IMG/VR virus record: IMGVR_UViG_3300044852_000047
Location: 10,058 to 74,057 of that record
Strand: one strand, 5' to 3'
DNA from: a virus
Lineage: Duplodnaviria > Caudoviricetes
Length of the DNA: 64,000 bases
Position 1 is the stretch's first letter; each line of letters opens with the position of its first letter. The position numbers and the translations under genes are program-made. The notes beneath the pieces were generated by a model. That model saw only the letters and a list, made by a program, of their open reading frames with translations. It had not been told where the DNA came from and did no database searches. Shown here one piece after another: positions 9,672-46,450 of this stretch.

Positions 9672-10116
9672 TCAATCGTTTGACCCGATGCAATTTGCCC
9701 CAGGCCAGTTGGTTGTCCCACTCATCTCGAGCGGCGAAGACCTGCACCATCGCCATGCGCTGGATGCCGTCTTTCACCACCACCGGCAAGTGGCGGTCAT
9801 GCACTTGGATCAGGTCTTCGTTTTCCATTACTACGCGGCTCTGGCTCATTTCACCGGTGTGATCGAAGCGTACCTGCCAGTGCCAGATCAATTTGCCGTT
9901 GGTTAACACCACCGAGTTAAAGGCGATACCCTGGTTGATCCTTTCCGTGCGAACCACGGAAAGGGGCTTGCCGCCTATTTTAATGTCCAGGCGCAGCAAT
10001 ACCCGACCTTCAATGCTGCGGTACAACTCCCGCATCACTGATTCTTCGGGGTACTCCATCGCCTTGATAGCCGGTAATTGCTCAATCAAAACCAAAAAGA
10101 ATTCGGTAGTCGCCAT
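9658..10116 (-). CDS. Hypothetical protein (152 aa)
   Basis: ORF with GGGGA RBS. Confidence 0.7.
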   Translation of the reverse strand: MATTEFFLVLIEQLPAIKAMEYPEESVMRELYRSIEGRVLLRLDIKIGGKPLSVVRTERINQGIAFNSVVLTNGKLIWHWQVRFDHTGEMSQSRVVMENEDLIQVHDRHLPVVVKDGIQRMAMVQVFAARDEWDNQLAWGKLHRVKRLIGAV

Positions 10117-23818: not shown

Positions 23819-23838
23819 TCGGGCAGGTCAGTAGAACG

Positions 23839-23862
23839 AGGGTCCCTAAAGGGACCCTTTTT
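23839..23862 (+). terminator. Intrinsic terminator
   Basis: AGGGTCCC-TAAA-GGGACCCT plus T tract, between convergent genes. Confidence 0.8.
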
Positions 23863-23874
23863 CTTGCGTGCTAG

Positions 23875-24342
23875 TTACAGGCGGATCAGCCAGTCGGTGG
23901 CCAACATATCCGTTTGACTCGGTACCCAAGCCACGCGAGCCCCTTCCGGGTATGGCCGACTGTTGACCGGGTAACTCAGACGCAAGTACGGCAGATCCAC
24001 ACCGTGTGCCGGGATGTAATCCACCCACATGCCCGCGCCATTCCAGCCGCTGCGCTGCATACGCTTGCCGGCCTTCAGGTACTCCAGGGCATGGCCAAAG
24101 CCAACGCCCGAATTGATGCCCTCATAGGCATTATCGAACTGTGCCTTCGGTGACCAGGAGAGGTAGCCCTCATGGTTTGGGTGGTTGGGTTTACCCCCGT
24201 CCAGGTACTCGACTAGGTAACCCAAATCTTCCCCGTCCTCATCACCGGGCAGTTCCCAGCCACGGTATTGGTTGTATTGCAGGCGATTCATAGCAGTCGC
24301 TAGTACACGTTTGGTGCCAATAAACTCAGACAATTGTTCCAT
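23875..24342 (-). CDS. Two-domain anti-defence sponge: N-terminal small domain plus DUF2829/Tad2-like domain
   Basis: C-terminal FGHALEYLKAGKRMQRSGWNG...WVPSQTDMLATDW; N-terminal IGTK..YRGW..GYLVEY..YLSWSPKAQFDNAY. Confidence 0.85.
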   Translation of the reverse strand: MEQLSEFIGTKRVLATAMNRLQYNQYRGWELPGDEDGEDLGYLVEYLDGGKPNHPNHEGYLSWSPKAQFDNAYEGINSGVGFGHALEYLKAGKRMQRSGWNGAGMWVDYIPAHGVDLPYLRLSYPVNSRPYPEGARVAWVPSQTDMLATDWLIRL

Positions 24343-24370
24343 CGATTACTCCTTGGTTTAGTTGTGTAAA

Positions 24371-24793
24371 TTACTTTCCGGTACTTCCGAAACCACCCGC
24401 GCCGCGTGTAGTTTTCGTCAACGATTCAACGGTAATAAGTTCCGGGGTACTGATCTGCACTAGGACAAACTGCAAGACCCGTTCGCCTTTGGCCCAGCAG
24501 AACGGATTACCGTTCTTGGTGCGTAATGTGGCCATCCACTCCCCGGTGTAGTCGTGATCAATCACACCACAGGTGTTATTCAACTCCAGGCTGAACTTGG
24601 CCCCGGCGCCCGAGCGCGGTAATAACAAGGCGACATGGCCGGCCGGTACTTGCGCTGCAAACCCCAAGTTGAACTTGATGGTTTCGCGTTCGCCTAGTTT
24701 TCCAGCCGTTGGCATGTAGATGTCATAACCGCCGGCAAACTCGGTACTGCGACTTGGGCAAATGAAATCTGCATGTAAGGGTTGAATATTCAT
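24371..24793 (-). CDS. dut: Trimeric dUTPase
   Basis: GYDIY, PRSG, GVIDHDYTGE, RGAGGFGSTG. Confidence 0.95.
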   Translation of the reverse strand: MNIQPLHADFICPSRSTEFAGGYDIYMPTAGKLGERETIKFNLGFAAQVPAGHVALLLPRSGAGAKFSLELNNTCGVIDHDYTGEWMATLRTKNGNPFCWAKGERVLQFVLVQISTPELITVESLTKTTRGAGGFGSTGK

Positions 24794-24841
24794 TATGATG
24801 CGTCCATTGGTGGGTTAAACAACACAGGTGGTTATACAACT

Positions 24842-26998
24842 ATGGCTGATACTCTTGGTACGTCGCCGGATAATCGTCCGCGACTAACAGATTGGGCTAA
24901 AGAACCCACTCTGATGGAACTCAAGCTGGATTTGGAAGAAGCCCGATCGAGCCATGTAGCGCGGGTCTCGGAGATTGAACTGTGGCTCGACAATATGCAC
25001 GTCCGCGGTAAAGCCAAAGTTGACACTGGGGTCGGTAACTCCAAGGTCGTGCCTAAGTTGATTCGAAAACAAGCAGAGTGGCGGTACTCTTCACTGAGTG
25101 ACCCGTTTCTCAGTACGCCTAATTTGTTCAAAGTAAAACCCGTGACTTGGGAAGACCGCGGCGCGGCTGATCAGAACATGATGGTGCTCAACCACCAGTT
25201 CAATAACCGGATCAAGAAACAGAAGTTCATCGACGACTACGTGCGCACCGCCGTGGATGAAGGCACGGTGATTATCAAGGTCGGCTGGGAACACCGGGAA
25301 GAGAAGTACAAGGAAACTGTGCCAGTCATCGAACTGACCCAGAGCCAGGACCCGGCGTACCTACAACAACTGCAACAGTGGATGCAGCTGCAACAGGAAA
25401 ACCCGGCCGGTTTCAGCGAGCTGCCGCCAGAAGTCCAGCAAGCGGTAATCGAGTCGGCCAAGGACAGCATCCCATACGTGGGGAAGGTCGTGGGTACCAA
25501 GGTCCAGGACGCCGTGCGCGTGCTGAAGAACCAGCCGACGCTGGAGATCTGCGATTTCCGCAACGTGATCATCGATCCCACCTGCCAGGGTGACATCGAC
25601 AAGGCTGGTTTCGTGATCCACCGCTTCGAGTCCTCGCTGTCGGAGCTGAAGGCCGACGGTCGTTACAAGAACCTTGAATTCATTGAAGCAAGTAGCAACT
25701 CGCCCTTGGGAGAACCTGATTATGCGTCGGCATCCACTGGCTCAAAAAACTTCAATTACGCTGACAAAGCCCGTAAAAAGTTTGTTGTTTATGAATATTG
25801 GGGATTTCGCGATATTGATAACAGTGGTGTTGTTAGCCCTGTGCTGGTCACTTGGGTAGGCAACAACTGCATCCGCATGGAAACCAACCCGTTTCCTGAC
25901 AAGAAAGTCCCGTTTGTGCTGGTGCCGTACATGCCGGTGCGCCGTGACAGCTATGGCGAGACGGATGGTGCACTGCTCGAGGACAACCAACAGATCATCG
26001 GCGCCACCGTGCGCGGCATGATCGACATCATGGCCAAGTCGGCCAACGGCCAGACCGGTATCCTAAAGGGTGCACTAGATACCACCAATAAACGCCGCTT
26101 CGACCGGGGCGAGGACTACGAGATCAATGCACAGGCGGACCCGCGCAGTGCGATCTTCATGCACACCTTCCCCAACATCCCGCAATCGGCGCAATTCATG
26201 CTGCAAATGCAGAACATGGAGGCCGAATCGCTGACCGGGGTGAAAGCCTTCAACAATGGCATCTCCGGGGAATCCCTCGGGCCGACTGCCGCTGGCGTGC
26301 GCGGAGCGCTCGATGCCTCCAGCAAGCGTGAACTGGGGATTCTGCGTCGACTGTCCAACGGCATGGTCGAAGTAGGGCACAAGCTGATCAGCATGAACGC
26401 AGTGTTCCTCTCCGACGTAGAAGTGGTGCGGGTGACCAACGATCAGTTCGTGCCGGTACGGCGTGACGACCTGGCTGGGGCTTTCGACCTGGAACTGACC
26501 ATCACCACCGCCGAGGAAGACAACGCCAAGGCGCAGGAACTGGCGTTCATGTTGCAAACCATGGGCAATAGCGTGGACTTCGGTATTACCCAGATGGTGC
26601 TGGAAGATATTGCTTCGTTGCGCAAGATGCCGGACCTGGCACACCGGATCAAAATGTACCAACCGCAACCTGATCCGATGCAACAACAGAAGGCGCAGTT
26701 AGAACTTGCCTTGTTACAAGCGCAGATTGCCACCGAACAAGCCAAGGCTGCTCATTATGGTTCCGGCGCACAATTGCAGGGTGCGAAAATTGGAACTGAA
26801 CAAGCAAAAGCGCGGCATGTTACCAGTCAGGCGGATCTCACTGACTTGAACTTTGTGGAGCAAGAGAGTGGTGTTAAACAGCACCGTGATCTTCAGAAAC
26901 AAGGGGCGCAAGCACAGGCGCAAGGCCAACTTCAAATCTTGGAACATCAACTTGCCATGAAAGAGCAAGCCAAGGCGGAAGTACTTGGTAATAAGTAA
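24842..26998 (+). CDS. Portal protein (N4 gp59-like)
   Basis: LTDWAKEPTL..LK.D, PKLIRKQAEWRY; about 718 aa; synteny. Confidence 0.9.
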   Translation: MADTLGTSPDNRPRLTDWAKEPTLMELKLDLEEARSSHVARVSEIELWLDNMHVRGKAKVDTGVGNSKVVPKLIRKQAEWRYSSLSDPFLSTPNLFKVKPVTWEDRGAADQNMMVLNHQFNNRIKKQKFIDDYVRTAVDEGTVIIKVGWEHREEKYKETVPVIELTQSQDPAYLQQLQQWMQLQQENPAGFSELPPEVQQAVIESAKDSIPYVGKVVGTKVQDAVRVLKNQPTLEICDFRNVIIDPTCQGDIDKAGFVIHRFESSLSELKADGRYKNLEFIEASSNSPLGEPDYASASTGSKNFNYADKARKKFVVYEYWGFRDIDNSGVVSPVLVTWVGNNCIRMETNPFPDKKVPFVLVPYMPVRRDSYGETDGALLEDNQQIIGATVRGMIDIMAKSANGQTGILKGALDTTNKRRFDRGEDYEINAQADPRSAIFMHTFPNIPQSAQFMLQMQNMEAESLTGVKAFNNGISGESLGPTAAGVRGALDASSKRELGILRRLSNGMVEVGHKLISMNAVFLSDVEVVRVTNDQFVPVRRDDLAGAFDLELTITTAEEDNAKAQELAFMLQTMGNSVDFGITQMVLEDIASLRKMPDLAHRIKMYQPQPDPMQQQKAQLELALLQAQIATEQAKAAHYGSGAQLQGAKIGTEQAKARHVTSQADLTDLNFVEQESGVKQHRDLQKQGAQAQAQGQLQILEHQLAMKEQAKAEVLGNK

Positions 26999-34343: not shown

Positions 34344-35963
34344 ATGGCGACGCCGATCACCTGGCGCAACATCAATTCGGACCCGACTCTCGGTGCGAGC
34401 CGTGCCCTGTCCGGTGCACAGCAGTCCGTACAGGACGTCAGTAAAAGCCTGATGGGGATCATTGATTCCGGTAACCAGCTCCAGGCGGATAACCGCGCCG
34501 CCATGATCAAAGGCAACACGCAGAACTTCCTAGATCAGGTGGCGGGTAAGTCCGCCACCGATCTGGCTGATCCGGCGGTACAGGCGCAACTGGCGGCACA
34601 GCGTCAATCCATGGCTTCAGCCGGTTTGATCGATCAGGCCGCGACCCGTAATGCCACGGTGGATCAGGGTGCGCTGTTGCAAAAAGCAGCCATGCAAACC
34701 ATGGAGTTCAACGACAAGTCGCAGACCGTGTCAGACCGTCCGGCCGAGCAGCAGGTAGCCCAACTGGTGGCTAACAAGGATTTCACCGGGGCGAAGCAGC
34801 TGATTGACCAGAACCACTTCTTGAACGCTCCCAGCCTGTACGACTCGCTGACCCAAGCCCAACGTGCGGCCACCGGTGATGCGTACAAAGCACAGGATCA
34901 AGTATGGCAGGGGCAGAATCACGCACTCAGCATGGCTCAAGGTAATCAGAGCATGGACTTTGCTCGTCGCAACCAAGCGTACGCCGATACTGTTCATGCG
35001 CAGGGAATCAAGGAGATCAACGACAGCAATGCCGCAGATGCCGTGGTACGTCAACTGGATGAAGCCTATAGCACTGGACAGAAGCAACAGGCGACAGCGG
35101 TCAATGCCATTGCCGATAAGTTACAGCTGCCGCGGGACCCCACCACCGGGGAGATTGCCTATGACAAGTTGTCGAACGACCAGGCGCAAACCATCAAGGA
35201 CACCTTGAAGGCGCAGGGACTGGACCAGAATTATTCTGCCACTAGTCGTAATGCCACGGCACACGAACTGACCAAGGATCTGCCGGTGGCGATCCAGAAG
35301 CAGGTGCAGGACAAAGCCTCTATTCTAGACGCCTTCGATGCAGTGGCCCCAGCCGACCAGCCGCGTATGCAATCCTACGTGCAGCAGGCCACCAAGCAGG
35401 CCACCTCGGACCTGACCATGTTGCAGATCCAGGAGGAGAAGGACAAACGCAATAACGTCTGGTTGAACACGTCGGCAGACCCTGAAAAGGATGCCATGGG
35501 TATTGTTGATGGCTTCATCAGCAAGCAGAAGGATCGCCCGACTGACGCCAACCAGCGCAAGTTAATTGAGGGGGCTACCAATGCACTGCGTAGTGGCATC
35601 AAGGTAAATATCGACGGCGAAGACAAGTTGGTACAAGTGCCCCCCTCGATGTTGGCCAATGCCTTGGATGCTGTGGGTTATGACCAAGCGGCTAGTATGC
35701 TGTCTTACGGTAGTTTTAAACCGGATGAAATTGGTAATTACATCAAGGACCAGTTAGTCAATAACCCGGATATGCTGGCGCAAATGAAAGCGGCACCGCA
35801 ACTAGCCGGGGCGTATGCCAAAGGAAAGATTCAACTCAGTCGCAAGATTGAAGCGGATACAACGGACGCCGTTAATACATTCAAACAACAAAATGGCATC
35901 ACGCCTAATTCGTCGAGTATCATCGACCGTATTAACCGCGCCGCCAAGGAATCGAAACAGTGA
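34344..35963 (+). CDS. Internal/ejection protein (N4 gp51-like)
   Basis: MATPITWRNI start; Ala/Gln-rich; directly before vRNAP. Confidence 0.75.
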   Translation: MATPITWRNINSDPTLGASRALSGAQQSVQDVSKSLMGIIDSGNQLQADNRAAMIKGNTQNFLDQVAGKSATDLADPAVQAQLAAQRQSMASAGLIDQAATRNATVDQGALLQKAAMQTMEFNDKSQTVSDRPAEQQVAQLVANKDFTGAKQLIDQNHFLNAPSLYDSLTQAQRAATGDAYKAQDQVWQGQNHALSMAQGNQSMDFARRNQAYADTVHAQGIKEINDSNAADAVVRQLDEAYSTGQKQQATAVNAIADKLQLPRDPTTGEIAYDKLSNDQAQTIKDTLKAQGLDQNYSATSRNATAHELTKDLPVAIQKQVQDKASILDAFDAVAPADQPRMQSYVQQATKQATSDLTMLQIQEEKDKRNNVWLNTSADPEKDAMGIVDGFISKQKDRPTDANQRKLIEGATNALRSGIKVNIDGEDKLVQVPPSMLANALDAVGYDQAASMLSYGSFKPDEIGNYIKDQLVNNPDMLAQMKAAPQLAGAYAKGKIQLSRKIEADTTDAVNTFKQQNGITPNSSSIIDRINRAAKESKQ

Positions 35964-38900
35964 GTGAATTTGACCTCAATGCTTACTTGTCCCGTCCCAC
36001 TGCGCCTCCTAGTGAGGGTAATGGAACTTCAGAGTTTGATCTGAACAGTTATTTAAAGCGGGATAAGTTGGCGGGGGTCACTCCGTTTAAAACCATCAAC
36101 CTGGATCAGGCAGTAGCCCGAGCCCAGCGCAATGTGGAACAGTCCCTGGTGGGTCACCTGGGGCTGGACCCTAATTCCATTACTGGTCAGGCAGTCAACG
36201 GCGCGGTGTCGTTTGCTTCTGGTACCAGCCGCGTGGCCGGTAACCTGCTGACCCTGCCGCTGGACGTATTGTCTGGGCTGGCACAAGGTTCGGTCCCTAA
36301 TGACGTCATTGATGCCTACTCGCGTTACACCGAGCGGCAGAACAACCCTAATCCCGATCCAACAGCCATCTCGACCGACAGCCCGGAACAGGCAGCGGCC
36401 GATTTGGCCCTGCTCAACGGTACTGCGCAAGGCGACAGCGGTGAAGCCGGTGCCCCGCAAACCTACTTGGCTCGCCTGCAAAGCGCGGACAAGGTTCGCC
36501 AGATGGCCAAGGCGGTGGATGATCAGTTCAACATCGACCGTACAGTAGATACCACTCGCCGCGACGTCTTCTCGGATGACCTGAAAGCCGCCACCGCCAA
36601 TGGTGTGGCGGATCTGCGTCAAGCCGCACATGACTGGAACTACGGGGATACCCCGGGCGAGACCGCCTCGGCCTTGAAGAACGGGATCTTCGGCACGGCC
36701 AGGACCGTGGGTAATGCGCTGGCGACGATCGCTACACATCCGGCCGCCATTGCCGAGTACACCGCAGAGAACATTCCGCAGCTGGCCATGGCCGCCAAAA
36801 GCGCCACGGCAATGGCCTTGAGCAATGCTGGTTATGGTTTCGACAACTACCGCCAAGGCATCACCGATTACCAGAAAGAAAACGATGGGATGCAGCCGAC
36901 CTCAGCGGATCGCCTGAAGATGGGCCTGTTCTCGGCCAGCGCCGCGTTGGCGGAAAACGTCGGTGAATCCAACCTGGTCAAAGGCCTGATGGGCCATTCC
37001 AGCAGCAATATCGTGAAGGCGGTGGGTAAGGGCGCTGCCACCGAAGGGGCGACCGAGACTTACCAGTCCTACGCGGAAGGGCAAGGCTCGCTGCAACCGG
37101 CCAGTCTGGAGTCCATTGTGGAAGGTGGCACCATCGGCGCAGCCGTCGGCGGCACCATTCATGCCGTAGGGCATGGTAACCACGGCGAGGCCACGGCGCA
37201 GGTTGAGCAGAACAAGGCGGTGGAAGACGCCTTCTCCAAAGCGGTGGAGACGGGTGACGTCACGCCTTTGACAGACACTACCAGTCCAACCTACGCCCCT
37301 GAGCGTGCGGTACAGGCACTTCATGCTGCCGTGCTGGCGCCGGATGCGACCGAAGAGGTCAAGCAAGCCAGCCTGAAACAGGCCGATGTGATTCAGGCGG
37401 ATCTGCACCAGCAGATCAAGGACATCAAGGACACCCAGACCCTCTATTCGCCGGATATGCAGGCGAACATGCAGGAAAAGATCGCTGAGAAGCAGGACCT
37501 GTTGAAAACAGCGCCGGCTGATGAGCAGGTCACCTTGCAACAGCAGATCCGTTCCTACGAGAACACGCTCGATACGGCACGCAACTACGACCCTGCGGCA
37601 GACAACGCCAAGCTAGAGCAGTTGACCCAGCAGCAAGAAGCCACCAGTGCTGCGGTGCAGCAGTTGCACATCGATGCCAGCCCCGAGACCGGGCAAGTGG
37701 AATCCCTGGTTTCACAGGTCAACGCTCCCGCCGCCGAGGACAACAAGGCCGCCGCTGAACAGCTGATGACCTTGACCATGTCCAACCCGGAGAGCCTGAG
37801 CCCGGAGCACATCAACAGTCTGCTGGACAACCCCGACAACCAGTTGACCCCGGAGCAACGGGACTCGCTGCGCGCCTTCAATGAAGCGCAAGTGGCGACC
37901 AATACGCTGAAAAGTAAAGACGCGGTCAGCACTGACATCTTCACCGGCGGGGAAGGGTTCAAGGGCCTGGACGAATATCGTTCACGGTTCCGTACCGCCA
38001 TGAGCACCGGCAACCCGGCACTGGCGCAGTCTGAAGTGACGCAGCTGCAAGCGTTTGCCGCCAGTCGTGAGCAAAAAGCTCAGGTACTGGCCGATGCCTA
38101 CAACCAGGTCAAGGGCACGGCGGACAGTCTGCAAGTGGTCAAGACTGATAATGGCTGGGAGATCCAGCCGCCTACCATGAGTAAACGCCAACTTCGTGCG
38201 AACGGTGGTCTGTTCGTCGATCGGACCACCTTTGCCATCCGTGACGCGGTCCAGCTGGAAGCCAAGGCACTGAGCAAGACTGCTGATTCCATGGCTTCGC
38301 TGTTGCCATCGATCAAAGCCGCCGCACCGGTTACTCAAGCCAGTGCCCCGGCAACCACGTCCGCAGATACGCAATTACGTTCGTACATAAGCACGCCAGT
38401 AACCACCGACACCGCTACGCAGGCTACGTCGGAACAAGCACCGGTATCTGACAATGCAGCGCCGGTCTCGGATAACCTGAGTACGCCTGTTACCCCCGAA
38501 GCGGCGGCGGAGCCTGCCAAAGAAGACGGTACGCTGGACGTGATCAAGAACACGCCCAAGGTCGAGGACACTGGTGTCGCCCCGGGCGAGTACACCAAGG
38601 GCAGCATGATTGGCAAGTTCTTCACCCAGCAAGCCAAAGGCGCCAAGGATGCAACGGCGCGTCCGCTGGTCGCGATGAAGGACTTCATCAGCAAGCTGAA
38701 GAACGATCGGGCGGTGGCCCAGTTGTTCATGGAAGACCGTGCGCCCCTGTCTCCGGCACAGGAACAGGCTGTGCAAGGCTTCCTTCAGTTTGCCGCCAAG
38801 GCCTTCCCGCACATCGAGAAGAACGTCAGCCGCAAGCTCAAGGGCGAGCAGTATCAATGGCAGGACTACGCCCAGCAGTTGTTGCAGGCGGACGGTACCC

Positions 38901-41900
38901 TGCCGCAGAACGTCAAGACGGCGATTGCCTACTCGATGTTTGCCCAGGTCAACGACATGGCCGGCGACCTGTTCAACGATGCACGGGCGATCAATACGAT
39001 CCTTGGCTTGCCGTCGGACACCATCCCGAGCCGCGCCGCGTATGCACTGCTGAGCACCATCGGCACCACCGAAGCCATCGCTGCCGCAAGCCTTGGGCAG
39101 ACCATCGTCCAAGCCAGTGGCTTCAAGGCGGTCAAGGGTGCACCAGTCAATGAGAAGGCTCGCCTAGAGACCGCACTGGGATTCCTGGCCATGAACAGCC
39201 TGGTCACCATGGGCGTTGGCGAGAAGGTTCGTGTCAGTGACGCCAAGATGCAGGCCGCCAAAGGTCGGGTCAGTGACCCTAATGAGCCGGTACAACTGAA
39301 CAGAGACACTACCTTCTTCCGCCTCAAGGCCAGCCGTAATGCCGACAACAAGTTGGTGGTCAGTGATCAGGCGCAGGCCGTCCGTGAAGCCAGCAAGGGT
39401 ACACAGGGTGCACTGGACAAGTTGTTCAGTGTGCAGTCGCGCTCGACAGAGCCAAGCCTGAAGCCTATCCCGTTCACTCAGGACAAGGCCAAGCGTACCC
39501 AACAGGGCATTAGCAGCACGCAAAGCCAGCTACTGGACAAGGTGGCCAAGCGCAAGCACGTCCTCAAGCAGAACATGTGGCAAGTCTGGGGTCAGCTAAG
39601 CAATCAGGCCCGCTATGCCATGGCCGGTGTGGTCAATGAAGACCCGGTACATGTGGTCAACCAACAGTCGACCCAGGCCAAGAATGACGCATTGATGCAG
39701 GAAGTCGACAACGCTCAGGACTGGTTCAGCAACACCCTGGGCAAGACCAAGAACGCCCTGGACACTGCGTTCTACTTCATGCCGAGCGTGTGGAGCAACT
39801 ACCGGGTGGGTCTGGCGCAGAACGTCATCAACCCACAAACCAGCAAAGTGCATCGCTACCTGATCAAGCAACAAGGATGGGACACGCCGATCAAGTTGGA
39901 TGATCCGGCTAGCTTCCTGCACTTCCAGTTGCGGGTACTGGAAGGCTTCGGCGTCAAGACTGAAGGCAACAAGACCTCGGCGGTGATCTCCGATGCCAAA
40001 GACGGCTGGCAGGCGCAGTTGGCCAAGCCGGAAATCAAGGCAGCGGTGGATGAACTGGTCAAGTCGCTCAATGGTGAGCAGCTGAATGAATCCGTGGTTG
40101 TGGCTGGGGTCAAGGCCGGTGGTGAAGGCTTCCACTCGCTGGCGGCGCTGACCGCGCTGGCTGAAATGCAGATGGCCACCGAGTCGGGGCAGCGCACGTT
40201 TACCACGGACTTGCCTGGTGAAGTGGACGGGGTCAACAACGGCCCACAACTGTCGATGCTGTACACCGGCACCTCCAGCGAAGCAATCATGGCGCAAGGC
40301 GGGTTCTTCACCAACGACCAGCATGCCCAGTTCTCCGACTATAAAGCGGTACCGGGCAACCACGACATGTACCAGGGCCTGATGGCCAAGATCCTTACAC
40401 AGATGGACCCCAAGTACCGTGACGCCCGCGTGGCGCTGGAAGGAGTGATCGGTGAGCTGGCGGATGCCGCCGGCAACATCAAGAAGGCCGGTCGTAACAT
40501 CGTCAAGACGCCACTGACCGCCGTGATGTTTGGTTCGGGTATTGGTCGCGCCGTGGCGTCGATGCAGGAAACCTTCATCGAGAACCTGTACAGCAAGATC
40601 GAGCAGGTGGCAGGCCTGCCCTTTGCCCAGCAGCAAGCGGCCATGGGTGACCTAGTAGGGCACCTCAATACACTGATCAAGACCGGTGATCCAAAGGCGG
40701 CCCTGCTGCACCCGAAATCGTCCGTCGACCAGATGATGACCACCGAGCTGAGCAAGCAGCAGACGCAAGCCATCAGCCAAGCCTTCCTGCACGTCATCGG
40801 GCAGGCCGCGACTAACACCATGAAGAATGAGTTCGGGGTGTTCATCGAGCGGCGCGACACCATCAACAAAACGGCGACCCGCGCCTATCGCCTGTACGCA
40901 CTGGCGGAAAGTATTCTGCGCCAGCAGATACTGGAAGCGGCTGGCAATACCACCACCCGTGTGCGTGAAGGCAAGACTGACTTTCTGCATGACCTGACTG
41001 CGACACAGCAAGCTGAGTTGGACGCCCAGCTGAACAATGTGGCGCCTATCATGCACACCGCGCTGTCGTTGATGAGCGGCGAGCGCAATACCGGGATGAT
41101 GTTGGCCAAGACCAAGAACACCTCGAGCAACGACACGGCCTACAGCAGTGAGCTGGACTTTGGGCAGAAGATCCCGCAGGTGGACGATAAGGGTGTAGCC
41201 CTCAAGGATACCCAGTCGACCAAGTCCGGCGGTACTCGCCGGGTACTGGCTGAGCCAGGGGTCGGTACCATGAGCCGCGGTATTCACTCCACGGACAGTG
41301 CCAACGCGGTGCTGACCTACGGCGAACACCCAGCGATCAACATCCACGATGCGGTACTGACCGGGATTGGTCATTTGGCTTCGGCGGCACAGGCGTTCAA
41401 CAAGAACACCTTCAACGTGATGCTCAACTACTCGCCGGCACATGAAGTACAGAAGACCTTCGAGCAGACGCTGATTGGTTTCGCTGAGTTGATGCAGGAC
41501 AAAGAATTCGCCAAGCTGGCGGCCCCGCACCTGGAAGAAGTCTTCACGGACTACAACCGCAAGGGCGAAGGGTTCACCACCTTGCCTAGTTCGCAGCTGC
41601 AACAGATCCGCGGGACGGCGCTGGCGGCTGACCACAACAAGTTCAGCTCCATGGCTTCAATGACCTCGGTCGGGCAGTACGCCACCGAAGGCGGTAGCTA
41701 CGCCGTTACCGAGGCCGACCGTGCCGCCGCTCTGAAGGCTCAAGAGAAACTGGTCAACCGCAGCAACCCACAGGCCGACAGTGCGATGGAAGTGCTGGAA
41801 GATCATGTGGAGCCGCAGGCGCTGGACGTACAGAAGACCGCTCTGGCGCAAGGCAGCATCGAGACCGCTACGGCAGCCACGGGTTTGAATGCCCTGGTGT

Positions 41901-44900
41901 CGATCAAGGACTCGGTCAGCGAAACCATGCAACAGGACATCGCCCAGGTGTCCCAGACCATGCTGGAGCAGAACATTCCGTTGGGGCAAGCCATCCAGGT
42001 ATTGGACCCGGTGTCCCAGACCAACCTACGCGAAGCCGTGCAGGAGAATGCCCGTGCCCAGCAATCGGTGTGGGGTGAAGTCGGTAAGCCGCGCTTCGAA
42101 AGCGACCCGGTGCTGGAAGCGCTGGTGAGTCGTGTCGGCATGACTAGCCACCAGCTGATCGATAACCTGATCCTGCACCTGGACAGCGTATTGCCTAAGG
42201 CACAGGCCCAGTTCCATAAGGAATTGCTGCAAAACGTGCGCAGCGTAACCCGGGATATTCCGGTGACCTACGTCACCCCACACACTGGCCCGGAAGGCGC
42301 CATGGGTGAGGGTGTCGACAAGTCTCGGGGCTGGTTTGCCCAGCGCGGTACCGTTCAGGGTCTGTACATCAAGTCCTCGGACTTCGTGGAATCCGGGATC
42401 ACTGCGGAACTGTTGACCCATGAACTGGTGCATGCCGCGCTGTCGGGTACGGTGCAGACGGAACTGAACCGCGCCCAGCGCAACCCGAACTACAGCAGTG
42501 ACGCCTTGTCGCTGGTGCGTGACCTGCAAGCGCTGCAAGCGAAAGCCCAACAACTGGTGCAGGCCAACGGTGCGCTGTCGGCCAAGTACGCCAATGCCAC
42601 CAGCAACGTGCATGAGCTGATCAGCTGGGGCCTGACCAACCAGTCGTTCCAGACGGAGGTCCTGAAACAGATCAGCGTACCGGCGTCCGTGGGCAACCGT
42701 TTGTTGAACGGTGTACAAGCGTTTGTGCAGAAGATCACGGGTCTGTTGTTCAAGGGTTCGCCTAAGAGCGTCAACCAGCGTCAGGCCACTGGCATGGGAC
42801 TGCTGCTGGCCAACACTGCTGGCTTGTTCAAGGCCGCCGCTGAGCGCCGTGATACCGCCAACCGGGAGCAGACCTTCAAGTACGAAGATGCTATGGACTC
42901 GGTCCAGGGCATGACTACCGATCAGGTGTACAGCGCACTGGCGGATTCGCCATCCGGCAACAAGGTCACCGATCCCCACCACGACAACGTGCTGCGTACT
43001 GTGTTGAGCAACATTGTCAGCAAGATCTATGGCCCGCACGGTGCATTCCATGAGCAGGCGCAAGCCAATGTGGCGATGACCGCCAGTGATGTGTTCCTCA
43101 AGTCGCTGGACACCGGCAAGCTGCCGTTTGCGTCGGCGGCACTGGCCTCGTCGTTCATTATCAGCGAGCAGGAAGCCTATGTACTGGAACAAGTCGAGGC
43201 GACTACCCAGTACGCCATGACCAGCAAAGAAACGCTGTTCGTCCGTTCGGCGTTGGAAGGGTTGTTCCAGCAAGCCAAGGCCAAGGTACAGGCGCGTGAC
43301 TTCTATGCCGGTGACTGGTCTCAGGCCAGTGATCAGGCCAAGGCCACGGCACAGGCCAAGCACGACTTCCTGTTCAAGGCGACCTCCAATGCCGACGGCA
43401 CGTCCAGTTACCTGGCCCGTTTCGCCGCACTGGGTCTGGCCAGCCAGGAAGTCAGCAAGGTCTTGCAGTTCGGTACCAGTAGTACACAGACAGCGCTGAG
43501 CAGCCTGTCAATCGGTGGCAAGATCATCGAACTGTTCAACCGTCTGCTGGCCAAGATCGCCCAGATCAACACCCGGACCTATACCGGTCAACAGGCCAAT
43601 TCCCAGCTGGGACAGCTGGTCAGTCAACTGGTGGACATCGAGGCCAAGCGCAAGACACGCATGCAGGAAGCCAAGCTCAACACCTTGGACAAGCTCGAAG
43701 GCTTTATTGACGGTGGCTTGAAGTACAAGCGTCGCACCGGCCGTTCGGCTATTGCTGATTCCACCCTGTTCAAGGTGGCCTCGTCGCCACTGATTCAGGC
43801 AGTCGGGCACGCCACTACTATTCTCGCCCGGTCCCGGGTAGGTGAAGTGATGGACCGGATCAGCCTGATTCGAGACAACGCCATGAAGGGTCGCCAGGGT
43901 ATCGCTATGGGCGTGATTAATGAGATCCAGGGCGTCACCGACAGTAAGCGGGCGGCCAAAGAGTTGCTGGACGGCGCCAAGTTCATTGAGCAAGGTCGTC
44001 AACACACCAACGACTATTCGGTGGATGCGGTCAACGGTTCGTTCCGCAACGGTAGCCAGGACTTGTCAGGGGTTGAACGGACTGCACTGACCCGCACCTT
44101 CCTGCGCACCAATGCGCATGCGTTGCTGGACCGCTTCGACATGACTAGGGTTACCGCGCTGCTGAATGACCCGGTGCAGATGAGGCAGGAACGCGAAGCG
44201 CTGGAGCAGCAAGTGAAAGCGCTGGGCAGCAATGCCAACTACTACCTGGTACAGACCAAGCATCTGGCCTACCACCGAGTGATCGGTGGATCGACCAGCG
44301 CCATGCAGATGCAGAGCGCCGAGAACATTGCCCAGTTGGTAGGTACCCACTTGCACGGCAGCGTGTCGGACACACAAGCCAAGGCTGCCGCTGATCTGCT
44401 GCGTCCGCTGATGGCGATGTACGCCCTGAATTACACCGATGCGGCCCAGAAGGCTCCGGCGCTGAAAGTGCTTCGTCAGGAAACCGGCCGTGAGGGTGGT
44501 GCCAATGGGGTTGAATACCTGTTGCTGCAACACAAGGCCCTGCTCAAGGACGCCAAGTCCAGCGTGTTCAATGGCAATGAAGCCCTGTTCGCTGATGGCT
44601 TCGTGCCGGAGATCCACGATCCTAAGATCGAGGTGGTGGCGGCGCACACACCGGAAACCATTGCCTACTTGCAAAAGTCGGGATTCGCTACGCCACCTAC
44701 CGGCGGCAAGGTGCAACAGGACCCACATGTCCAGGGTCACCCGGACACAGTGCTGTTAACCCGTCGCGGCAGTGGCCAGGCGGACATCCTCACCGGCGCC
44801 GTGAGTTACACAAACCTGCATGCCAAAGGCACGCCGGTGGAACGTCATGACGGGGCGATTAACCTGCTGGGCGGTTCGATGGGCGCCAACCAGGCCACGG

Positions 44901-46450
44901 TCAACCACATCCTGGTAGCACGGGATGCGGAGATCCGTGCCATGTTCACCACCGATGGCTTGACGTTTGACCCACGCAAGCAACAAACCGGTCGTGCCGT
45001 GCCGTTGCTGCGCCCGGACGGTTCGGTGGCGGACTTTCGCTACACCATGACCGAGGACAACCGTGATGCTTTACTGGATCGCAACAACGACATGGCCAAG
45101 CTGATCGGCGCACTGGCGGCCAGTACCGTGGACAAGGTCAACAGCACACAACAGAACCGCGACGTGGTGCGGACCCTGCGCGAGCAGTACCGTGAGGATT
45201 ACGCCAACCGGCCGAGCAGTTACATCAAGGTCGGGCGTGACAGCACCGATGCACGGCTGCGCGAGCAGTACCACTTGCTGTCGGATGACATCCGCGCCGA
45301 GATCAAGCGTATCTGGAAGTCGGACAACATGATGATCCCGGCCGACCAGCTGGACATGATCATGGGCTACCGCAAATACAGCCTGACCGAAGCGTTCAAG
45401 AACGTGAAGGGCAGCAAGGCTGAGGTCTACGCGGATTGGCATGCCGGGGAGTTCAATGACCGCAATCTCAGCGAGAAGCTGATGATTGGCGTGACCACCG
45501 CACTCTGGGGCGAGAAGGCCGGCTGGCGCGTGGGCAAGGCCGAGGACGCAATTCAGGAAATCATGAAGGCTACCAAGGACATCCTGGTGATCAAGTCGAT
45601 CACCACGATGATTGGCAACATCAAGAGCAACCTGTCGTTGTTACTGGCTTATGGGGTACCGCTGAATAAGCTGATCGCCAACCATGCGGTAGCAATCAAG
45701 GGGGCGCTGGACTACCGCAAGGACAACAAGCGATTGATGCAGCTGGAGATGGCCGTGAACGGCGGATACGTGCCCCAGGGTCAGGCAAACGTCGAGGAGG
45801 AGATGGTGATGTTGCGGGACCGTATTGCCCGCAACCCGGTAAAAGACCTGATCGATGCCGGCCTGATGCCAACGATCGTGGAAGACGTGGATGCCATGGA
45901 CAACCAATACAGCTACAAGTCGCGCCTGACCAAAGCCATTGACGACCGTACCCAGTGGGTCCCGGGACTGGCCAAGACCGTGGTCAAGGAAGGTCTGCTG
46001 TTCACCCATGACTCTATGGCCTACAAATTCCTCAGCCAGTCCACTCAGCTTTCCGACTTCGTGGCGCGTTATACCTTGTACGAGCACCTGATCAGCCGTC
46101 CTACGGATACCCTGAGTTCGGTGGACGCCATGCGTCGTGCCGAGGATGCGTTCATCAACTACGACATTCCGTCGCACCGGTCGATCCAGTACATGAACGA
46201 CATGGGCTTGTTGATGTTCACCAAGTACTACCTGCGTATCCAGAAGGTGATCGCCCAGCTGTTCAAGGAGAAACCAACACGGGTACTGGCCACCGTCATG
46301 TACGGTCACTATGTACAGGGTGCGTCGGTGGTCACCGACTCCAGCTGGCTGCACCGCATCGGGCATAATCCGCTGGGTAACAGCATCCTCGGTGCACCGG
46401 CGGTGATCGATGAACTGCCTGGGGTCAAGGGTCTGTTGAATGTGTTGTAA
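35960..46450 (+). CDS. Virion-encapsidated RNA polymerase (N4 gp50-like vRNAP), 3496 aa
   Basis: Size; no Cys seen on read-through; motif A EVDGVNNGP, motif B RNIVKTPLTAVMFGSG, motif C NIHDA. Confidence 0.97.
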   Translation: MSEFDLNAYLSRPTAPPSEGNGTSEFDLNSYLKRDKLAGVTPFKTINLDQAVARAQRNVEQSLVGHLGLDPNSITGQAVNGAVSFASGTSRVAGNLLTLPLDVLSGLAQGSVPNDVIDAYSRYTERQNNPNPDPTAISTDSPEQAAADLALLNGTAQGDSGEAGAPQTYLARLQSADKVRQMAKAVDDQFNIDRTVDTTRRDVFSDDLKAATANGVADLRQAAHDWNYGDTPGETASALKNGIFGTARTVGNALATIATHPAAIAEYTAENIPQLAMAAKSATAMALSNAGYGFDNYRQGITDYQKENDGMQPTSADRLKMGLFSASAALAENVGESNLVKGLMGHSSSNIVKAVGKGAATEGATETYQSYAEGQGSLQPASLESIVEGGTIGAAVGGTIHAVGHGNHGEATAQVEQNKAVEDAFSKAVETGDVTPLTDTTSPTYAPERAVQALHAAVLAPDATEEVKQASLKQADVIQADLHQQIKDIKDTQTLYSPDMQANMQEKIAEKQDLLKTAPADEQVTLQQQIRSYENTLDTARNYDPAADNAKLEQLTQQQEATSAAVQQLHIDASPETGQVESLVSQVNAPAAEDNKAAAEQLMTLTMSNPESLSPEHINSLLDNPDNQLTPEQRDSLRAFNEAQVATNTLKSKDAVSTDIFTGGEGFKGLDEYRSRFRTAMSTGNPALAQSEVTQLQAFAASREQKAQVLADAYNQVKGTADSLQVVKTDNGWEIQPPTMSKRQLRANGGLFVDRTTFAIRDAVQLEAKALSKTADSMASLLPSIKAAAPVTQASAPATTSADTQLRSYISTPVTTDTATQATSEQAPVSDNAAPVSDNLSTPVTPEAAAEPAKEDGTLDVIKNTPKVEDTGVAPGEYTKGSMIGKFFTQQAKGAKDATARPLVAMKDFISKLKNDRAVAQLFMEDRAPLSPAQEQAVQGFLQFAAKAFPHIEKNVSRKLKGEQYQWQDYAQQLLQADGTLPQNVKTAIAYSMFAQVNDMAGDLFNDARAINTILGLPSDTIPSRAAYALLSTIGTTEAIAAASLGQTIVQASGFKAVKGAPVNEKARLETALGFLAMNSLVTMGVGEKVRVSDAKMQAAKGRVSDPNEPVQLNRDTTFFRLKASRNADNKLVVSDQAQAVREASKGTQGALDKLFSVQSRSTEPSLKPIPFTQDKAKRTQQGISSTQSQLLDKVAKRKHVLKQNMWQVWGQLSNQARYAMAGVVNEDPVHVVNQQSTQAKNDALMQEVDNAQDWFSNTLGKTKNALDTAFYFMPSVWSNYRVGLAQNVINPQTSKVHRYLIKQQGWDTPIKLDDPASFLHFQLRVLEGFGVKTEGNKTSAVISDAKDGWQAQLAKPEIKAAVDELVKSLNGEQLNESVVVAGVKAGGEGFHSLAALTALAEMQMATESGQRTFTTDLPGEVDGVNNGPQLSMLYTGTSSEAIMAQGGFFTNDQHAQFSDYKAVPGNHDMYQGLMAKILTQMDPKYRDARVALEGVIGELADAAGNIKKAGRNIVKTPLTAVMFGSGIGRAVASMQETFIENLYSKIEQVAGLPFAQQQAAMGDLVGHLNTLIKTGDPKAALLHPKSSVDQMMTTELSKQQTQAISQAFLHVIGQAATNTMKNEFGVFIERRDTINKTATRAYRLYALAESILRQQILEAAGNTTTRVREGKTDFLHDLTATQQAELDAQLNNVAPIMHTALSLMSGERNTGMMLAKTKNTSSNDTAYSSELDFGQKIPQVDDKGVALKDTQSTKSGGTRRVLAEPGVGTMSRGIHSTDSANAVLTYGEHPAINIHDAVLTGIGHLASAAQAFNKNTFNVMLNYSPAHEVQKTFEQTLIGFAELMQDKEFAKLAAPHLEEVFTDYNRKGEGFTTLPSSQLQQIRGTALAADHNKFSSMASMTSVGQYATEGGSYAVTEADRAAALKAQEKLVNRSNPQADSAMEVLEDHVEPQALDVQKTALAQGSIETATAATGLNALVSIKDSVSETMQQDIAQVSQTMLEQNIPLGQAIQVLDPVSQTNLREAVQENARAQQSVWGEVGKPRFESDPVLEALVSRVGMTSHQLIDNLILHLDSVLPKAQAQFHKELLQNVRSVTRDIPVTYVTPHTGPEGAMGEGVDKSRGWFAQRGTVQGLYIKSSDFVESGITAELLTHELVHAALSGTVQTELNRAQRNPNYSSDALSLVRDLQALQAKAQQLVQANGALSAKYANATSNVHELISWGLTNQSFQTEVLKQISVPASVGNRLLNGVQAFVQKITGLLFKGSPKSVNQRQATGMGLLLANTAGLFKAAAERRDTANREQTFKYEDAMDSVQGMTTDQVYSALADSPSGNKVTDPHHDNVLRTVLSNIVSKIYGPHGAFHEQAQANVAMTASDVFLKSLDTGKLPFASAALASSFIISEQEAYVLEQVEATTQYAMTSKETLFVRSALEGLFQQAKAKVQARDFYAGDWSQASDQAKATAQAKHDFLFKATSNADGTSSYLARFAALGLASQEVSKVLQFGTSSTQTALSSLSIGGKIIELFNRLLAKIAQINTRTYTGQQANSQLGQLVSQLVDIEAKRKTRMQEAKLNTLDKLEGFIDGGLKYKRRTGRSAIADSTLFKVASSPLIQAVGHATTILARSRVGEVMDRISLIRDNAMKGRQGIAMGVINEIQGVTDSKRAAKELLDGAKFIEQGRQHTNDYSVDAVNGSFRNGSQDLSGVERTALTRTFLRTNAHALLDRFDMTRVTALLNDPVQMRQEREALEQQVKALGSNANYYLVQTKHLAYHRVIGGSTSAMQMQSAENIAQLVGTHLHGSVSDTQAKAAADLLRPLMAMYALNYTDAAQKAPALKVLRQETGREGGANGVEYLLLQHKALLKDAKSSVFNGNEALFADGFVPEIHDPKIEVVAAHTPETIAYLQKSGFATPPTGGKVQQDPHVQGHPDTVLLTRRGSGQADILTGAVSYTNLHAKGTPVERHDGAINLLGGSMGANQATVNHILVARDAEIRAMFTTDGLTFDPRKQQTGRAVPLLRPDGSVADFRYTMTEDNRDALLDRNNDMAKLIGALAASTVDKVNSTQQNRDVVRTLREQYREDYANRPSSYIKVGRDSTDARLREQYHLLSDDIRAEIKRIWKSDNMMIPADQLDMIMGYRKYSLTEAFKNVKGSKAEVYADWHAGEFNDRNLSEKLMIGVTTALWGEKAGWRVGKAEDAIQEIMKATKDILVIKSITTMIGNIKSNLSLLLAYGVPLNKLIANHAVAIKGALDYRKDNKRLMQLEMAVNGGYVPQGQANVEEEMVMLRDRIARNPVKDLIDAGLMPTIVEDVDAMDNQYSYKSRLTKAIDDRTQWVPGLAKTVVKEGLLFTHDSMAYKFLSQSTQLSDFVARYTLYEHLISRPTDTLSSVDAMRRAEDAFINYDIPSHRSIQYMNDMGLLMFTKYYLRIQKVIAQLFKEKPTRVLATVMYGHYVQGASVVTDSSWLHRIGHNPLGNSILGAPAVIDELPGVKGLLNVL

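Follow-up and report, generated by a model that had tools for sequence, protein, structure and literature searches.

Reviews as of late 2026 list seven families of phage sponge, proteins that sequester the signals of bacterial immune systems, and an eighth, RyR Tad, is gp68 of Pectobacterium phage vB_PatP_CB1 (Fedorova et al., bioRxiv 10.64898/2026.06.04.730250). RyR Tad begins with an N-terminal domain that the same report calls a 'fold with unknown function'; in the crystal it forms a dimer by swapping strand β1, and so contributes to dimerisation (bioRxiv 10.64898/2026.06.04.730250). Fedorova et al. (bioRxiv 10.64898/2026.06.04.730250) further describe an 'anti-signalling hotspot' that holds gp49 of phage N4. 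Among the other families, Acb4 corresponds to PF13876 (Phage_gp49_66) and Sequestin to PF21825, the latter having itself been discovered through its fusion to known sponges. Here we describe a homologue of N4 gp49 encoded in a 64,000-nucleotide stretch of viral DNA (the window; positions 10,058 to 74,057 of IMG/VR record IMGVR_UViG_3300044852_000047, Caudoviricetes; all coordinates below are those of the window). It is a 155-residue protein in which a probable Tad2-type sponge follows an N-terminal domain, hereafter the N-domain, that is homologous to that of RyR Tad and that, in other phage proteins, is joined to most of the known sponge families.

The Tad2 domain

The original prediction had assigned the C-terminal half of the protein to DUF2829 (Tad2), and both profile and fold comparisons bear this out. 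Residues 82-153 match the Tad2-like profile PF11195 over positions 3-72 of its 73 with 67.3 bits (cut-off 25; E 1.7e-18), a match recovered at 68.1 bits in a scan of the genome, and the solved Tad2 chains of ModTad2, SPO1 Tad2 and HgmTad2 are found by sequence at E 7e-11 to 7e-9. AlphaFold2 models the whole protein with a predicted local distance difference test score (pLDDT) of 92.5, and the Tad2 domain of the model, with the N-terminal helix and antiparallel sheet of the Tad2 fold, superposes on ModTad2 and HgmTad2 with a root-mean-square deviation (rmsd) of 1.3-1.4 Å over 70 residues (VIA Z 11.5 for 9eib_A and 11.1 for 8kbi_A); Foldseek pairs it with 8v3e, 8wje and 8smg (E 4e-5, probability 1.00). 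All of the polar contacts that HgmTad2 makes with glycocyclic ADP-ribose (gcADPR) according to Li et al. (W21, N22 and G23; W87, S90, T92 and D93) are kept in the alignment, as W100, N101 and G102 and as W139, S142, T144 and D145, and most of these contact residues are invariant in the family alignment. The C-terminal domain is thus, as far as sequence and predicted structure can tell, probably a functional Tad2-type sponge. In HgmTad2, a long insertion between β2 and β5 forms a second cavity, for cyclic dinucleotides; here the insertion is short (a Tad2 module of ~76 residues versus 104 in HgmTad2, with gaps in the query against 9kzr and 8kbi), and a cyclic-dinucleotide site of the HgmTad2 type is therefore not expected.

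Two side observations concern this fold. The neck protein of Staphylococcus phage 812 (8qkh_S) aligns with residues 78-155 of the model at Z 6.4 (73 residues, 18% identity), a hint that the DUF2829 fold occurs in virion proteins too. Homologues in INPHARED, such as those of Escherichia phages Louie, Huey and Mimir124, are labelled 'anti-CRISPR protein' in some records, a label that goes back to AcrIIA7, in which anti-Cas9 activity failed to reproduce and which was shown to be a sponge.

The N-domain, its family and its partners

The N-terminal part had been described as a separate small domain, which our analysis upholds: its ~77 residues, modelled in isolation with 150 relatives, give a pLDDT of 96.1 and the order (β)-β-α-β-β-α, and scans of Pfam, NCBIfam and PADLOC families place them in none. 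Their relationship lies instead with RyR Tad. A hidden Markov model (HMM) of the family, built from 149 representatives, matches residues 6-65 of CB1 gp68 over HMM positions 1-67, a match that takes in the entire domain (24.1 bits, E 1.3e-9), BLASTP with the N-domain finds gp68 at E 7e-5, and Foldseek pairs the N-domain with an RyR-domain protein of Yersinia phage TG1 (probability 1.00, TM score 0.63); these profile, sequence and fold matches establish homology between the N-domain and its counterpart in RyR Tad. It is also widespread, with 1284 representative clusters at E<=1e-3 among 1.84 billion representatives, and tblastn places it in 123 sequenced phages, whose many hosts range from Proteobacteria to Clostridium.

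Searches of the Protein Data Bank with the N-domain were less informative. By sequence and profile they returned only chance matches, or Tad2 matches that came from fused partners; by fold, with the N-domain alone, the best Foldseek E was 3.8 and the best VIA Z 3.8, and the lists contained no known sponge structure, which is not proof of a new fold. The best structural likenesses are to DUF1653 (3be3; rmsd 1.9 Å over 50 residues) and to chromo/Tudor-like barrels, at Z 3.8-4.4; for DUF1653 and for the chromo, Tudor and SH3-like barrels alike, values up to 4.4 are within chance and come with no sequence relationship, so that no function can be transferred.

The original prediction had, moreover, likened this part to Acb4, a sponge of the CBASS (cyclic oligonucleotide-based antiphage signalling system) pathway. 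The N-domain is almost certainly not Acb4. PF13876 gives no match at E<=1 anywhere in the 155-residue protein, although the same profile scores 119.5 bits on N4 gp48 and 49.9 bits on a reading frame of the same phage at 51529-52074, and hhalign of the N-domain profile against the Acb4 profile gives a probability of 0.8%, against 100% for a split-family control. No sequence match leads from the N-domain to the solved Acb4 9e4w, whereas N4 gp48 finds it, and the predicted order β-β-α-β-β-α differs from that published for Acb4, whose fold, as in 9e4w, resembles the double-stranded RNA-binding domain (α1-3, β1-3, α4-5); 9e4w is also absent from our fold-search lists, an absence that is not proof. 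Of the bifunctional anti-Thoeris and anti-CBASS protein that had been proposed, the two-module build with a Tad2 domain stands, and the Acb4-type anti-CBASS second domain, having failed every test run, does not.

Tad1-Acb2, TadIV-1, Sequestin and Lockin were also considered as identities for the N-domain and ruled out by profiles and published fold descriptions. PF21825 and PF24729 do not match it, and hhalign gives 0.2% against Sequestin (and 1.5% against Tad2); Sequestin is all-helical, TadIV-1 is a two-helix dimer, and Lockin occurs in fusions as a separate domain, C-terminal to the N-domain.

As to the company that it keeps, six of the eight known sponge families have members fused to the N-domain: Tad2, Sequestin, Acb4, Acb2/Tad1, Lockin and RyR-Tad. 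Our census of partners covers the best 149 of the 1284 clusters, picked by similarity to the N-domain, and Pfam recognises Tad2 in 53 of them, Sequestin (PF21825) in 38, Acb4 (PF13876) in 13, the Acb2/Tad1 hairpin in five and WDGH in one. By local HMMs, the commoner orders are N-domain-Tad2 (47), N-domain-Sequestin (27) and N-domain-Acb4 (6), with two cases each of the reversed Acb4-N-domain and Tad2-N-domain; nine proteins consist of the N-domain alone, and in 32 of the 149 it accompanies a partner of no recognisable family. There are several triple fusions, among them N-domain-Sequestin-Tad2 and Acb4-N-domain-Sequestin, and isolated phages carry such proteins too: Arace01_00002 comprises Acb4, N-domain and Sequestin, and Axy13_069 N-domain, Acb4 and Sequestin. 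A Lockin domain is present in five representatives; among these, P0122 shares 61% identity (E 2e-28) with one of the Lockin homologues that Tal et al. list in their Table S4. Fusions of N-domain and Lockin appear in that table as well, and their Table S1, on Sequestin, lists at least 85 N-domain fusions. The ESM Atlas tells a similar story, with stand-alone N-domain clusters of 67-93 residues and the same fold in clusters of Tad2, Sequestin, Acb4+Sequestin and Acb2/Tad1.

Among the partners without a recognisable family are two small clusters that recur, one of ~70-130 residues and one, helical, of ~72 residues. Partners of this kind are found in P0125, P0153, P0185, P0231 and P0265, in P0144, P0158, P0186 and P0246, in P0131, P0149, P0171 and P0226, and in others; by the logic of fusion they are candidates for further anti-signalling domains.

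Within this range, the present gene is unexceptional. The whole protein matches phrog_872 from end to end (E 1.7e-49, residues 3-153), and a word-indexed search found at least 796 homologous clusters at 90% identity, all of ~150 residues and with PF11195, among them prophage copies in Pseudomonas, Enterobacter and Citrobacter. By sequence, then, it is a further member of the widespread N4 gp49/phrog_872 family, in which the fusion is not unusual.

What the N-domain may contribute

We posit a two-module anti-signalling protein of the N4 gp49 type, in which a Tad2 sponge is joined to an autonomous N-domain; taken as a whole, we hold this to be an evenly balanced proposition. The Tad2 module, going by its homologues, would assemble into a homotetramer and sequester ADP-ribose-derived signals made by TIR (Toll/interleukin-1 receptor) proteins, thereby blocking the Thoeris effector; the likely signals would be 1''-3' or 1''-2' gcADPR, and possibly His-ADPR (histidine-ADP-ribose). 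The N-domain would bring its own binding site, independent of the partner, for some immune signal or target. The whole would be made early, the dut cassette to which the gene belongs being expressed ahead of the virion genes.

From the occurrence of the N-domain alone, its fusion to six unrelated sponge families, and conserved residues that do not depend on the partner, we infer a function of its own. Its recurrence by itself and its six-family fusion also lend circumstantial support to the earlier suggestion of a second putative sponge. That it is an autonomous second binding module falls somewhat short of an even chance, even though we favour this over a purely architectural role; that it founds a further family of phage anti-signalling modules, be they sponges or binders of a conserved defence component, is a more tentative proposal still.

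The conservation of the N-domain is central here. Across the N4 gp49-type family, all-pairs identity is 0.70 for the N-domain versus 0.53 for the Tad2 domain. K11, R20, Y23, R27, W29, E35, E45, D48, N53, Y60 and W63 are kept at ~0.9-1.0, in stand-alone forms and in every class of fusion, a level that is inflated because the 149 sequences were chosen by their similarity to the N-domain. A shorter form, roughly IGTK...GYAVKYADGY.SWSPK..FE.AY, occurs in some of the Sequestin fusions that Tal et al. tabulate (Table S1); both the helix and the acidic loops are missing from it, and the β core thus seems separable from the conserved polar loops.

That inflation is one of several points that weigh against our proposal. 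The N-domain is net acidic in 96% of representatives, and known sponge pockets are positively charged. The structure-guided screen for sponge pockets by Tal et al. includes no N-domain among its tested candidates (Table S2). Tad2 homologues differ in what they bind (gcADPR, His-ADPR, N7-cyclic ADP-ribose, and the cyclic nucleotides cUMP and cCMP), so that the exact signal cannot be read from sequence. Furthermore, the N-domain of RyR Tad on its own (gp68_N, residues 1-86) is inactive against type I Thoeris, and gp68_C suffices by itself (bioRxiv 10.64898/2026.06.04.730250). The N-domain of gp68 is, however, divergent: it keeps GYLV.Y and Y.SWSP..F and lacks R20, R27, W29, E45, D48-G50 and N53, and with most of the conserved polar residues missing, its negative result bears only weakly on the canonical N-domain.

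Could the N-domain be purely architectural, a strand-swapped element that dimerises, cross-links or stabilises its partner and has neither ligand nor target of its own? Through it, for instance, tetramers or dimers might be connected to one another to give larger assemblies, or local concentration might rise. We think this unlikely, but it is the best of the alternatives. The β1 swap in the crystallised RyR Tad homologue and the division of labour in gp68, with an inactive N-terminal and an inhibitory C-terminal part, are what it would lead one to expect; one generic helper role would account for partners from six sponge families, and the acidic surface is unlike that of nucleotide pockets. 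On the other hand, stand-alone genes are common, and there would be no point in a helper domain without a partner; Tad2, Acb4, Sequestin and Lockin form oligomers by themselves; and the charged and aromatic residues are more conserved than those of the sponge partner, and equally so in stand-alone forms. A homodimer prediction for residues 1-78 scored 0.40 against a mark of 0.42, and counts neither for nor against.

A binding module of a different kind is also conceivable, one that attaches to a macromolecule such as a host defence sensor or effector, or a host complex like RNA polymerase (RNAP), and either inhibits it directly or anchors the sponge at the site of signal production. The weak structural likenesses are all to chromo/Tudor/SH3-like protein-binding barrels, including the RNAP-binding domains of Mfd, CarD and UvrD (Z 3-4.4), an acidic surface would suit a basic protein partner, and non-sponge inhibitors such as Tad3 occur in the same hotspots. 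Nevertheless, we regard this as improbable, since Z below 4.5 is the chance range for the structure library used, and a protein target shared by hosts from Proteobacteria to Clostridium would need to be very conserved.

It is more improbable still that the protein is no anti-defence sponge, and is instead an anti-CRISPR of the AcrIIA7 type or a neck-like virion component. The database labels, the likeness to the phage 812 neck protein and the location in the structural block would agree with this; yet AcrIIA7 has itself turned out to be a sponge, the gene runs opposite to the structural genes, in a pair with that of a dUTPase, the ligand-contact residues are intact, and N4 gp49 sits in a documented anti-signalling hotspot beside Acb4. 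As for a bifunctional Tad2-Acb4 protein as in Pasteurella phage Pm86, such fusions exist and are active against both systems, and N-domain proteins are often fused to Acb4, but the profile, sequence and secondary-structure comparisons above, together with fusions in which N-domain and Acb4 stand side by side as distinct domains, leave this reading with next to no credence.

Returning to the two-module protein with an autonomous N-domain, we consider that the gene itself is one more sponge of the Tad2 family and a homologue of N4 gp49, and that its value lies in the N-terminal domain, which has neither a Pfam model nor a name, and yet is fused to six of the eight sponge families, is found alone and is more conserved than its partners. 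The logic of fusion that gave Sequestin here points to a candidate in a model phage of E. coli, namely gp49 of N4. Our literature search found no functional study of N4 gp49, and no paper that names or tests the N-domain, the sole published mention found being that of Fedorova et al.; nor did a motif search find an N-domain in any tested Tad2 homologue among the supplementary entries listed for Hadary et al. If the N-domain binds a signal, it would add a sponge family to those known and offer a fresh way to learn which signals are in use in bacteria; if it only dimerises, it would show how phages construct multi-sponge assemblies. Were the reading as a new family to hold, the N-domain (1284 clusters) would be no less widespread than Acb4 or Lockin and would be the most promiscuously fused module among sponge proteins, and its family-less partners (32 of 149) would make a ready list of candidate anti-defence domains, and thus of more new sponges.

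The locus and its named relatives

The 155-residue reading frame is almost certainly a real gene. It follows dut in a two-gene cassette on the minus strand (Table 1), amid genes of the plus strand for the terminase large subunit (phrog_38, E 1.8e-92), a gp67-type virion protein (phrog_2125, E 6.9e-65) and the portal (phrog_1216, E 3e-249); the earlier description of a frame antisense within the structural block and adjoining dut is accurate. The hairpin beyond its stop codon sits between the convergent gp67-like gene (+) and the 155-residue frame (-), although such terminator-like sites are no more frequent than in shuffled sequence, and the call is weak on its own. No sigma-70 promoter was found upstream of dut, as is expected, given that N4-like phages transcribe their early and middle genes with polymerases of their own. 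When the 3.9-kb neighbourhood was compared by megablast with 50,697 phage records, nothing matched, so that the region is without a close sequenced relative at the DNA level.

Table 1. The two-domain gene and the adjoining features of its cassette (window coordinates).
Feature	Position	Strand	Basis and remarks
Whole open reading frame, 155 residues plus stop	23875..24342	-	ATG start; two-domain protein of N4 gp49 type
N-terminal companion domain, residues 1-77	24112..24342	-	AlphaFold2 and family search; homologous to the RyR Tad N-terminal domain
Tad2 (DUF2829) domain, probable sponge, residues 78-155	23878..24111	-	PF11195; GWNG and W-x-x-S-Q-T-D ligand motifs
Ribosome-binding site AAGGAG, 6 nt ahead of the ATG	24349..24354	-	Read directly from the sequence
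dUTPase gene, upstream, same strand, 28-nt gap	24371..24793	-	PF00692 E 2.3e-21; phrog_135 dUTPase E 1.5e-42
GC-rich hairpin, 9-bp stem, likely shared terminator	23838..23859	.	Terminator-like site on the + strand

The portal frame as listed begins at a TTG at 24782 and overlaps the start codon of dut (24793). The portal match to PHROG sets in close to an ATG at 24842, which makes this codon the likelier start; dut and portal, which diverge, would then be separated by only ~48 bp, in which no sigma-70-like promoter for dut is seen.

The phage itself is N4-like, as judged from a virion RNA polymerase (vRNAP) reading frame of 3496 residues at 35960-46450 and from the neighbouring genes, and its 74,057-bp record is rated complete. 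Its replication genes lie on the minus strand, and the dut cassette, inside the late block, shares its direction with early and middle genes; this orientation fits expression of the cassette before the virion genes. The canonical hotspot of this phage, on the vRNAP/primase side, contains on the minus strand a true fusion gene of Acb4 and Sequestin, the frame at 51529-52074 that served as a control above, with the 49.9-bit Acb4 match at ~51811-52047 and a Sequestin match (PF21825, 57.3 bits) at ~51586-51765; it resembles gp59 of Pseudomonas phage Ab09.

The antisense slot at 23838-24842, between the portal and the gp67-like/terminase genes, holds dut and the Tad2 protein, and the equivalent slot in Pectobacterium phage CB1 (NC_048653, 44155-46040) holds MazG, a small reading frame and an Acb4 homologue. 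The portal/gp67-like slot looks like a second insertion site for accessory or anti-defence genes in N4-like phages, apart from the published hotspot on the vRNAP side.

Among named proteins, gp49 of N4 (YP_950527, 'DUF2829 domain-containing protein') has the same two domains, belongs to the same PHROG 872 and is 43% identical over residues 3-153 (E 5e-43). Its gene lies in the hotspot, between gp48 (Acb4) and the vRNAP gene, whereas the present gene belongs to a dut cassette flanked by the gp67-like and portal genes. The characterised Tad2 proteins (SPO1 gp34.65, ModTad2 and HgmTad2/AcrIIA7) are single-domain proteins of 89-104 residues, to which the present protein adds an N-terminal domain of 77 residues. 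RyR Tad shares with it the plan of an N-domain followed by a C-terminal sponge of gcADPR type, and both come from N4-like phages; the sponge of RyR Tad is, however, a helical domain like Repeat12 of the ryanodine receptor, and not Tad2, and RyR Tad is a dimer. Lastly, the Acb4-Tad2 protein of Pasteurella phage Pm86 and the Acb4-Sequestin protein Ab09 gp59 likewise place small anti-signalling modules on one polypeptide in the hotspots of N4-like phages; in those two fusions both modules are proven sponges, while the first module of the present protein belongs to none of these families.

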